In this document: one piece after another, positions 2,103-4,779 of the stretch
Position numbering within the stretch: the first letter of the stretch is position 1
How the letters are laid out: each line of letters starts with the position of its first letter
Origin: Candidatus Sysuimicrobiota bacterium
GTDB lineage: Bacteria > Sysuimicrobiota > Sysuimicrobiia > Sysuimicrobiales > Sysuimicrobiaceae
DNA length: 23,815 bases
Direction: 5' to 3'
NCBI GenBank assembly: GCA_040289515.1
Contig: PSLI01000033.1
Location: 1 to 23,815, forward strand
Program-made: the position numbers and the translations under genes
The notes under the pieces: model-generated
Told to the model about the DNA's origin: nothing
Database searches by the model: none
The model's input: the letters and a program-made list of their open reading frames with translations, nothing else

Positions 2103-2130
2103 GGAATAGCACGCGGGACGAGATTGTCAA
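2103..2130 (-). promoter_or_regulatory. Putative sigma70 promoter for the SPW gene
   Basis: TTGACA (overlapping the ispG stop), 16 nt, then TATTCC preceded by TG. A 7-bp hairpin follows at 2077-2094. Confidence 0.45.
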
Positions 2131-3398
2131 GGGAATCGGTTTGACGAGACTTCCTTCGATCCGGGGGCGAAGCGGGTGGCCACGTAGGACTCCAGGATGG
2201 CGCAGAACTCCTGCACCAGGCCGTCTCCCCGCAGGGTGGTGAGGAGCCGGCCGTCCACGTACACGGGGGCCCGCGGCTCCTCGAAGGCGCCGGGCAGGCT
2301 GATGCCCACGTGGGCATGCCGGCTCTCCCCCGGCCCATTCACCACGCACCCCATCACCGCCACCCGCAGATCCTCCACCCCCGGATAGCGCTGCTTCCAC
2401 TCGGGCATGCGCGACCGGATGTACGCCTGCACCTGTTCGGCCATCTCCTGGAAGAAGGTGCCGTGGGTGCGTCCGCAGCCCGGGCACGCACTCACCTGGG
2501 GGAAAAAGCTGCGGATCTCCAGGCTCTGTAGGATCTGCTGCGCCACCCGGACCTCCTCGGTGCGGTCGCCTGCGGGCGGGGGCGTCAAGGACACCCGGAG
2601 GGTGTCGCCGATGCCCTCGTGCAGCAGCACCGCCAGGGCCGCGGTGGAGGCCACCACGCCCTGGGTTCCCATGCCGGCTTCCGTGAGGCCCAGGTGCAGG
2701 GGGTAGTCGCAGCGCGCCGCGAGGGCGCGGTACACCTCGATGAGGTCCACGGGCTGGCTGGTCTTGGCGCTCAGCACGATGCGGTCGTGGGGCAGGCCGA
2801 AGGACTCCGCGAGGCGCGCGGAGCGCAGGGCGCTTTCCACCATGGCCAGCCGGGTAACCTCCCGGGCGCTGAGGGGCTGGCTTCTGCGGGCGTTTTGCTC
2901 CATCAGCTCTGTGAGCAGGGCGCCATCGAGGGAGCCCCAGTTGACCCCGATGCGCACGGGCTTGTCGTAGCGCAGGGCCACCTCCACGATGGCCCGGACG
3001 TTCTCGTCGTGTCCCCGGGGCCCCACGTTGCCGGGGTTAATGCGGTACTTGTCCAGGGCCCGGGCGCAGGCGGAGTACCGCGTGAGCAGGAGGTGGCCGT
3101 TGTAGTGGAAGTCGCCCACCACCGGTACGTCCACCCCCGCGGCCCGGAGCCGGTCCACGATATGTGGGACCGCCCTCGCTGCCTCCTCGGTGTTCACCGT
3201 GATGCGCACCAGCTCGCTTCCCGCCTCCGCCAGCTGGCGTGCTTGCTGCACCGTGGCTTCTACGTCCGCGGTGTCGGTGCTGGTCATGGACTGCACGGCC
3301 ACCGGGGCTCCCCCGCCCACGGTGATCCGGCCGATGCGCACGGGTACGGACGGCCTGCGTCGGGAGGTCTGCAGCTGTGTGGACACGCTCGCGCTCAC
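2127..3398 (-). CDS. ispG: (E)-4-hydroxy-3-methylbut-2-enyl-diphosphate synthase
   Basis: [44 protein letters not shown] and [10 protein letters not shown] (4Fe-4S ligands). Start uncertain (GTG 3398 or 3386); an extended -10 TGGTATCCT at 3406-3414 favours a leaderless GTG at 3398. Confidence 0.95.
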
Positions 3399-3430
3399 CG
3401 CCTCGAGGATACCACCGGACGGAGGGCCGC

Positions 3431-3526
3431 AAAACAAATTGCCAGCGGACCGCTTGCCCCGAGTTAGGCCGGGTTACTCCTTCCGGAGCACCTCCTCCCA
3501 TCTCGGTGCCGCGCTTCCGCTGGCAC
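3431..3526 (-). ncRNA. Candidate small non-coding RNA: long hairpin capped by GGAA, SRP-4.5S-like shape but non-canonical
   Basis: Ends pair over 10 bp (UGCCAGCGGA/UCCGCUGGCA). Nested helices are CGC/GCG, GC-A-CCGAG/CUCGG-G-GC, UGGG/CCUA, GGU/ACC and GCUCC-GGAA-GGAGU. G-U pairs form only on the minus strand. Own promoter upstream and a UUUGUUUU tail. Confidence 0.6.
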
Positions 3527-3531
3527 ACCGT

Positions 3532-3560
3532 ACGATAGCACGCGCGGACGGTTTTGGCAA
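3532..3560 (-). promoter_or_regulatory. Sigma70-type promoter driving the hairpin RNA
   Basis: TTGCCA (3560-3555), 17 nt, then TATCGT (3537-3532) with an extended TG. The predicted start (~3526) coincides with the first paired base. Confidence 0.7.
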
Positions 3561-3594
3561 TCGGGAAAGTGCGTACGGTACCCATCCGCCGTCC

Positions 3595-3615
3595 GTACCA
3601 GTCTTCTGGTACAGT
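3595..3615 (+). promoter_or_regulatory. Inverted repeat overlapping the extended -10 of the sqr-like operon
   Basis: GTACCAG-TCTT-CTGGTAC (3595-3612) overlaps TGG-TACAGT (3607-3615). Confidence 0.45.
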
Positions 3616-3648
3616 TGCACCGGGACCCCGAATCGGAGGGAGGTGACC

Positions 3649-4779
3649 ATGGCACGGGTGGTAATCCTGGGAGGAGGGGTCGGGGGCCTTGCGGCCGCAC
3701 AGGCGCTGGCACCTGCGGCCCAAGCGGGGCACGAGGTGTGGGTAGTGGATCGGCGGGAGAGCTTCTTTTTGGGGCTGCGCAAGCTGTGGGTCCTGGCCGG
3801 TACCTCGGACCTAGCCTCCGGAAGCAGGCCTCTAGAGGGGCTGCGCCGCCACGGGGCGCGCTGGCTGCACGACGAGTTGGTCGCCGTGGAGCCGGACAGG
3901 CACCGCGTGCGCACAGCCGGCGCAGGGCTGCACTACGACTACCTTATTGTAGCGCTGGGAGCGCAGCCGCGGCCGGACATGGTTCCGGGCGCAGAGCACG
4001 CCCTGAACCTGTACGACGCGCACGAGGTGGAGCGCCGCGCGCCGGAGGTGCGACAGCTGCAGGCAGGCCGGGTGGCGGTGGGGATCCTGGGCCTGCCGTA
4101 CAAGTGCCCGCCGGCACCGTACGAGGGGGCCATGCTGCTGGACGACTTTTTCCGGCGGCAAGGCGTGCGGGATCGGGTGGAGTTGGTGGCCTTCACCCCC
4201 CAGCCCAGCTCCCTGCCCGCGGCTGGCCCCGCGGCGTGCGCCGCGGTGGAAGGCCAGCTGGCGGAAAAGGGGATCCGGTTCCAGCCGAACCGGAAGACGG
4301 TGCGGGTGGAGCCGGGCCGGGTGGTGTTCGAGTCCGGCGAGCTGACCTACGACGTGCTGGTGGCCGTCCCTCCCCACCGTCCTCCGCAGGTGGTGCTGGA
4401 AAGCGGCTTGGCGCAGGACGGGTGGATCCGGCCCGACCCACGGACCCTGCGCACCGCTTACGAGCGGGTGTTCGCAGCGGGCGATGTAGTGGAGATCCCG
4501 ATGGCTAACGGGATGCCCCTGCCCAAGGCGGGGGTGTTTGCCGAGTCGCAGGCCCGCGTAGCCGCCTCGTGGATTTTGCACGAGCTAGGGCTGGGGCAGC
4601 CTTTGGAGTTTGACGGGTACGGGTACTGCTTCGTGGAGGTGGGCGGGCAGAAGGCCGCGAAGGTCACGGGCCACTTCCTCACGCACCCGGCCCCGCAGGT
4701 GCACATGTCGGAGCCCACCCGGCAGGCGTGGGAGGAAAAGCGGGCCTTCGAACGGGAACGGCTGGAAGCGTGGCTGTAA
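3649..4779 (+). CDS. FAD-dependent oxidoreductase of the sulfide:quinone oxidoreductase / FCSD family
   Basis: N-terminal GGGVGG Rossmann motif, YDYLIVALG, YKCPPAPYE, VFAAGD, PKAGVFA and GYCF (two redox Cys). SD GGAGGTGA before ATG 3649. Confidence 0.85.
   Translation: MARVVILGGGVGGLAAAQALAPAAQAGHEVWVVDRRESFFLGLRKLWVLAGTSDLASGSRPLEGLRRHGARWLHDELVAVEPDRHRVRTAGAGLHYDYLIVALGAQPRPDMVPGAEHALNLYDAHEVERRAPEVRQLQAGRVAVGILGLPYKCPPAPYEGAMLLDDFFRRQGVRDRVELVAFTPQPSSLPAAGPAACAAVEGQLAEKGIRFQPNRKTVRVEPGRVVFESGELTYDVLVAVPPHRPPQVVLESGLAQDGWIRPDPRTLRTAYERVFAAGDVVEIPMANGMPLPKAGVFAESQARVAASWILHELGLGQPLEFDGYGYCFVEVGGQKAAKVTGHFLTHPAPQVHMSEPTRQAWEEKRAFERERLEAWL

Follow-up and report, generated by a model that had tools for sequence, protein, structure and literature searches.

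A single-copy, rod-shaped RNA with phylum-wide covariation in Sysuimicrobiota, a candidate protein-binding small RNA

The minus strand of a short region (positions 3431-3560) in a Candidatus Sysuimicrobiota genome very probably carries a stand-alone small RNA gene that is under structural constraint. This region lies in a 23,815-nucleotide stretch of DNA, referred to as the window, that comes from a 2.0-Mb genome (assembly GCA_040289515.1, contig PSLI01000033.1) in 76 contigs with 96.7% completeness. We read the RNA as a single-copy rod of ~90 nt whose base pairs covary across nearly all of its phylum, that is distinct from the signal recognition particle (SRP) RNA, that matches no Rfam family, and that would act in trans by binding a protein. 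The probability of this reading as a whole is put at roughly 0.55. The features of the locus are:

3555-3560, minus strand: -35 hexamer TTGCCA (promoter with 9 of 12 matches and a 17-nt spacer)
3532-3540, minus strand: extended -10 element, TG (3540-3539) plus TATCGT (3537-3532), ending 6-7 nt before the helix
3440-3525, minus strand: RNA body, an 86-nt imperfect hairpin with its ends paired in a 10-bp terminal helix (from minimum free energy folding and covariation)
3431-3439, minus strand: AUUUGUUUU tail, the predicted 3' end, of intrinsic-terminator type (read from the sequence)
3490-3504, minus strand: 5' strand of the conserved core, GAGAUGGGAGGAGGU (invariant or near-invariant columns)
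3461-3474, minus strand: 3' strand of the conserved core, ACCCGGCCUAACUC (from the alignment and pair counts)
3481-3484, minus strand: apical GGAA loop, variable in the alignment of relatives and so no functional signature
3564-3576, minus strand: GTAC-GCAC-TTTCC, the decayed counterpart of a LexA-like box, whose left half-site is lost in the window's family
3406-3414, minus strand: TGgTATCCT, a possible extended -10 element of ispG, ending 7 nt before the GTG at 3398
2127-3398, minus strand: ispG (Pfam GcpE, 380.8 bits), the next gene downstream, outside the RNA
3649-4779, plus strand: sqr-like gene (Pfam Pyr_redox_2), next to the RNA on its upstream side, divergently oriented and outside the RNA

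The promoter, which is of sigma-70 type and spans positions 3560-3532, is the sole promoter-like site (TTGCCA-17-TATCGT) in the interval 3250-3750, where 50 shuffled sequences yield a mean of 0.0. Pattern searches of 50 species loci find a TTG-type -35 element at the equivalent place in 44 and a TANNNT ending 4-9 nt before the start of the RNA model in all 50. The predicted transcript begins at the foot of the terminal helix and ends at the U-run. The intervening hairpin (3525-3440) has a minimum free energy of -55.4 kcal/mol, compared with a mean of -36.5 (standard deviation 3.8) for shuffled sequences, which corresponds to a z-score of -4.94; none of 200 shuffles is as stable. On the plus strand the same DNA folds more weakly (-45.0). 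An apical UCC-GGAA-GGA, five GGA motifs and GGGAGGAGGU can be read directly in the hairpin, which is followed by a tail summarized as UUUGUUUU. The sequence-only reading had listed this promoter, the terminal helix, the apex, the GGA motifs, GGGAGGAGGU and the tail, and all of them are present at this locus on the minus strand. It had also placed the gene between ispG and an sqr-like gene, as the Pfam matches of both flanks bear out.

The tail is less uniform across relatives. A scan for simple terminators made no call at the hairpin because it limits loops to 3-8 nt. Since the tail is U-rich (at least 6 T of 13) in only 23 of the 50 species loci, and weak in the other 27, the 3' end of the RNA may form otherwise than at a U-run. 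A search of sequencing runs for the locus listed no RNA run, and a single DNA run matched a small share of it. By blastn, the window's genome carries one full-length copy, and the 15 other matches are fragments of 14-21 nt. A 15-mer from the block upstream of the promoter, GCACTTTCCCGATTG (3561-3575, minus strand), recurs once in this genome, at C48:29860 on the plus strand, where a short GC hairpin follows it.

Representatives of the RNA are found throughout most of the phylum. A blastn search recovers it in 23 of 40 relatives. Genome searches relied on a covariance model, R1, that was built in this analysis. R1 matches the window at 3433-3526 with 100.5 bits on the minus strand and 34.9 bits on the plus strand, in agreement with the weaker plus-strand fold and with the orientation that had been proposed. 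Searches at the level of the class and of the phylum returned an identical set of 94 genomes, so that CSP1-3, or 'Sysuimicrobiota', amounts to a single phylum with a single class and a single order. R1 finds the RNA in 81 of the 94, including 66 of the 73 that are at least 85% complete and 50 of the 54 of high quality (at least 90% complete and at most 5% contaminated); it has no match in the remaining 13, of which four are of high quality. By family, with f1 denoting the window's own family, f2-f7 the other families of the phylum, and the window's genome excluded, the counts are 10/11 in f1, 32/34 in f5, 22/22 in f2 and 15/23 in f4, together with 1/1, 0/1 and 0/1 in the single-genome families f7, f3 and f6. 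Relatives have one to three R1 matches per genome.

An exact pattern for the conserved core was also scanned against one genome per species from 185,579 species. It occurs at 58 loci, 51 of which are full-length matches to the covariance model with at least 46.9 bits. These 51 come from metagenome-assembled genomes labelled as this group (Candidatus Fervidifonticultor, Tepidifontimicrobium, Thermofontivivens, Geohabitans or 'Armatimonadetes bacterium CSP1-3') or just as 'bacterium', with two labelled otherwise. The seven other loci belong to other phyla, have odd spacings as expected by chance, and fail the model. As far as an exact-core pattern reaches, the RNA thus appears to be confined to this phylum; diverged homologues could escape such a pattern. 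Weak, diverged copies scoring 37-52 bits occur in one genus of f4 (L074:406-495, L075:3007-3096 and L076:1996-2085) and at L087:9932-10023. These four copies are without the conserved upstream promoter block and may be decaying or differently expressed paralogues.

Comparison of relatives defines a common architecture. All 27 sequences in the blastn set fold into the same rod. In their MAFFT alignment a 26-pair structure has 97.4% of its cells paired, and 13 of the 26 pairs have changed on both sides; none of 500 shuffles reaches the real value, and sliding one partner by 1-3 columns reduces pairing to 30-51%. RNAalifold independently arrives at 26 pairs and detects compensatory changes in 14. 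In 72 distinct sequences drawn from 83 forward matches and aligned by fitting to the covariance model, 96.0% of cells are paired (32-49% when slid), and 18 of the 26 pairs have changed on both sides (204 cells). The covariation that the sequence-only reading had suggested looking for in relatives is therefore present in each of these data sets, and the new small-RNA class that it had listed among its options fits both this conservation and the Rfam results given below.

The most conserved nucleotides form a core helix. Its 5' strand has the consensus G-N-U-G-R-G-A-G-(N)-G-A-N-G and its 3' strand A-R-C-C-C-G-G-C-Y-U-A-A-C, and the helix between them is interrupted by a 1x1 mismatch, a 1x2 internal loop and a 2-nt bulge and includes a G.U wobble. 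The G.U pair is kept in 71 of the 72 distinct sequences. Within the core, UGGG/CCUA is replaced by UGAG/CUUA in the f4 sequences and by CGGA/UCUG in a single f1 copy, and these compensatory changes fix the register. The terminal helix is conserved as well, with an invariant GCG/CGC centre. The apex, in contrast to these parts, is variable: relatives have GCAA, GAAA, UUCG, CCG or CCUCC-type loops, or a stem extension of ~35 nt. The extension characterizes a long f2 paralogue of 123-128 nt (loci L077-L082; for example, L080:3005-3130, ~125 nt). The longest conserved single-stranded run anywhere in the RNA is at most about 4 nt.

Two known tertiary motifs were considered for the core and dropped by eye. 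A kink-turn, by its usual definition, needs GA opposite the bulge, and here the strand opposite the bulge has GG. A tetraloop receptor, likewise taken in its usual definition, might have been read in GAUGG/CCUAAC, where the compensatory changes fit a plain Watson-Crick register. A small peptide encoded in the hairpin was also set aside, for no reading frame is conserved and lengths differ by 1-2 nt between copies, and by ~35 nt in one paralogue.

Because the conserved nucleotides lie in helices and in loops of 1-2 nt, with no seed-like run, the core helix with its G.U pair and small loops would serve as a docking site for a protein and not as a base-pairing seed. Protein binding, as the RNA component of a ribonucleoprotein (RNP), is our first choice of mode of action at about even odds, since the distal stem is expendable and conservation lies off any seed; pairing to other RNAs or mimicry of a Shine-Dalgarno (SD) sequence comes next, followed by action as a cis leader. 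The RNA resembles Y RNA in several respects. Y RNAs are rods formed by their 5' and 3' ends, with a bulged helix that is the site for Ro (Rsr), a variable distal part and a link to stress. The RNA described here shares the end-paired rod, a conserved helix with small bulges, the variable distal part and a putative stress link (see below). Unlike Y RNA, it has no Rfam Y RNA match, and a TROVE/Ro gene is found in none of the five genomes searched, with a control detected in Deinococcus.

The putative stress link comes from a box upstream of the promoter. A strict GAAC-N4-GTTY, with a spacer of variable sequence, is present at 35 of the 50 species loci (40 if RAAC is allowed), where it starts 49-51 nt before the model start and 3-4 nt upstream of the -35 element. 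The 50 species loci are numbered L088-L144, and relative to the RNA the box lies about 39-51 nt upstream. The lexA gene is preceded by one operator with this core, CGAAC(A/G)NN(T)GTTTGC, at 33 of 33 loci, and recA at three of five. The GAAC-N4-GTTY core is rare genome-wide, with 41 sites on both strands of the window's 2.0-Mb genome; with a leading C it has 36 sites in a 3.2-Mb relative, compared with 10 for the reversed control. Since the box shares its core with the lexA operators found in these genomes, partial control of the RNA by LexA, and hence by DNA damage, is proposed for most of the phylum. The boxes and the operators differ at two flanking positions, as judged by eye: 31 of 33 lexA operators have a T directly before GTT, where the RNA boxes are variable, and the base after GTTY is G in all 33 operators and C in the RNA boxes. 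Binding of LexA at the RNA box is, because of these two differences, only moderately likely. Decay of the box in the window's family leads to the prediction that the window's copy is constitutive, with no SOS control expected.

A second protein with a LexA_DNA_bind domain (about 75-91 bits) is encoded by most genomes in the phylum, and the window's genus has one LexA. The occurrence of this paralogue shows no clean correlation with an intact RNA box, and no strict GAAC-N4-GTTY box lies upstream of it in the three cases examined (L159-L161). The window's genome also has LexA-box-like sites in promoter-like settings elsewhere, at C8:27226(-), C9:3040(-), C64:6496(-), C17:11261, C37:23723 and C62:109871. 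The C8 site lies 3 nt upstream of TTGCGC-17-TATAAT, a layout like that at the RNA gene in other families.

This layout resembles that of the 6C RNA of Actinobacteria. The 6C study (PMC5014011) describes two stem-loops whose loops each contain at least six conserved cytosines. In Corynebacterium glutamicum, 6C (cgb_03605) has a LexA operator near the -35 element, ~50 bp from the transcription start, that partially represses a strong promoter, and its molecular function was left unresolved in that study (PMC5014011). Both RNAs are phylum-wide, stand-alone and highly structured, have lengths of ~80-100 nt and are driven by a strong housekeeping-type promoter. The box with a lexA core that 35 of 50 species have 49-51 nt before the RNA, a candidate LexA site that has decayed in the window's family, parallels the 6C arrangement. 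The two share no sequence or structure homology, however: the RNA here is one long rod with a G-rich internal-loop helix, belongs to another phylum, and gives no Rfam 6C match in the window. The protein-binding reading can be extended, tentatively and at less than even odds, to a stable housekeeping or stress RNP RNA of the whole phylum whose G.U helix would dock a protein and whose level would be tuned by LexA through an operator beside the -35 element, with promoter logic parallel to but independent of that of 6C.

The rival that survives best, though it remains unlikely, is a base-pairing riboregulator or SD mimic. In such a mechanism GGGAGGAGGU would open and pair with C/U-rich targets, such as the anti-SD tail of 16S rRNA or C-rich sites in mRNAs, and would thereby mirror the C-rich loops of 6C. 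Consistent with this possibility, copies from f1, f5 and f4 and the long copies of f2 all retain GAGGU, the long f2 form occurs in 21 of the 22 f2 genomes as judged by match length, and LexA-linked base-pairing sRNAs have been reported. Against it, the G-rich stretch is paired in every fold and covariation backs those pairs, and exposed conserved runs stay at or below the approximately 4 nt mentioned above. The SD-like AGGAGG is not universal, being AG(U/A)GAGG in f4 and GAUGU or GACGU in the short f2 copies. In addition, Hfq has no match in the window's genome and only two weak matches among five genomes.

A cis-acting leader or attenuator is a poorer prospect still, and the neighbouring genes bear on it. 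Neighbours were assigned by a Pfam scan of 98 open reading frames picked around 52 loci by a crude greedy procedure; many of these frames have no Pfam match and are probably spurious, including some at the window's own locus. Five different gene contexts emerge, with no shared downstream gene or pathway. In f1 (four loci and the window) the order is a divergent Pyr_redox_2 (sqr-like) gene, the RNA and ispG. In f5 an aminotransferase gene ends 30-32 nt before the RNA at 13 loci, and the next gene is a convergent LytR_cpsA_psr gene at eight of the 13, a glyoxalase gene at two and without assignment at three. Short f2 copies are upstream of a LonC-like protease gene at four of seven loci, and long f2 copies follow an ANTAR response regulator gene at three of six loci and precede the NAD synthase gene nadE, by 38-75 nt, at two. 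In f4 a convergent M20 peptidase gene follows the RNA (three loci). Two protein families without a Pfam match (E at most 0.01) are encoded directly upstream of the RNA on the same strand in f2 and f4. The f2 family has a conserved part of ~120-180 amino acids with 57-79% identity (L030:894-1445, L032:1686-2336, L084:444-1043 and L083:3163-4692), and the f4 family comprises ~390-450 amino acids with 47-51% identity (L070:913-2148, L071:883-2058 and L072:3107-4462).

A leader would use the hairpin and U-run as a regulated terminator ahead of ispG, the LonC-like gene or nadE, contexts in which a same-strand gene does lie within 18-91 nt of the RNA. Specifically, ispG was called at four f1 loci, where it begins 18-39 nt after the RNA, and in the window it begins 33 nt past the tail, and f2 copies are 38-91 nt upstream of same-strand genes. 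Read-through or cis effects may occur in these contexts. As a general function, the attenuation of ispG that had been suggested from the window is not supported: the downstream gene differs in every family and is convergent in f5 (eight loci, LytR-type) and f4 (three loci, M20), leaving nothing to attenuate. Moreover, the conserved structure consists entirely of the terminator-like hairpin, and no alternative folding partner is conserved in the flanks. Between the RNA and ispG lies the TGgTATCCT listed above, with GGTGNTA at the same place in six listed loci of the same genus, and ispG may therefore have its own promoter, an extended -10 of the form TGNTAT, and a near-leaderless mRNA; the promoter scan made no call at this site (3406-3414). 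Because neighbours differ between families and the downstream gene is convergent in two of them, the RNA is likely best read as a trans-acting gene and not as an ispG attenuator.

That the hairpin is only a conserved strong terminator, perhaps bidirectional, or an insulator without an RNA function of its own is very doubtful. Its position between convergent genes in f5 and f4, and the long GC-rich stem followed by a U-run in the window's copy, would suit such a role. Terminators, however, do not preserve their sequence, a G.U pair and small internal loops in unrelated gene contexts throughout a phylum, as this element does. It also has a dedicated promoter conserved at all 50 loci, a model score that depends strongly on the strand, and a U-tail that is weak at more than half of the loci.

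The first possibility raised from the sequence, an Ffh-binding RNA that is a divergent form or a paralogue of SRP (4.5S) RNA, has become highly improbable. The two RNAs do have much in common: both are hairpins of ~90-100 nt whose ends pair, each comes from one gene that has its own promoter and is present almost throughout the clade, and the window's copy has a UCC-GGAA-GGA apex. Rfam 15 (4227 models), however, yields no match at gathering score in the whole window and none at an E-value of 10 or below in 3300-3700, so that the locus fails the SRP model (RF00169) along with every other family. A canonical Bacteria_small_SRP gene (ffs) is present on another contig of the same genome with 66.8 bits, well above the RF00169 gathering threshold of 40, and five of five other genomes from five families have one canonical SRP RNA match each. 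The apical domain IV of SRP RNA, comprising the tetraloop and the Ffh-binding loops, is not conserved here; in relatives the GGAA loop varies together with the pairs that close it, or both give way to a long stem. The conserved part lies below the apex and does not look like the apex of the genome's own SRP RNA, from which the apex of the hairpin differs too.

Least credible are a sponge RNA that sequesters CsrA/RsmA and a repeat of REP or MITE type: the window's copy does have five GGA motifs, as the proposal of CsrA sponging had emphasized, but CsrA is found in none of the five genomes searched and the loop GGA is not conserved, and the single full-length copy per genome here, with one to three elsewhere, is unlike a dispersed repeat. 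The 6S RNA (RF00013) was likewise rejected, since it is ~180 nt long with a large central bubble and the RNA here is ~90 nt with no large bubble; RF00013 has no match in the genome at an E-value of 1 or below, with a model that detects 6S RNA in only five of 14 control genomes.

The protein-binding RNA that we favour would join a set of orphan, lineage-specific structured sRNAs in Rfam such as Acido-1, Chloroflexi-1 and Yfr1. It shares with them a covarying structure, restriction to one phylum and its own transcription signals, and differs in that no Rfam 15 model matches it and that its host phylum has no cultured members. A literature search for CSP1-3 together with RNA motifs found no description of this RNA, and the text of the paper describing the phylum makes no mention of small RNAs, ncRNA or LexA.

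Sysuimicrobiota (CSP1-3) is an abundant phylum of soils and hot springs without pure cultures. Presence in 50 of 54 good genomes, 18 covarying pairs of 26 and a dedicated promoter make the RNA a strong candidate for a new Rfam family. Annotators gain a model for a gene that has so far been invisible, and a false 'second SRP RNA' is removed. The RNA also offers a handle on a putative RNA-protein system. If the proposed LexA control is true, the SOS response would include, for a second time and independently, a structured RNA found across a phylum, and this would bear on the question of what 6C-type RNAs do.
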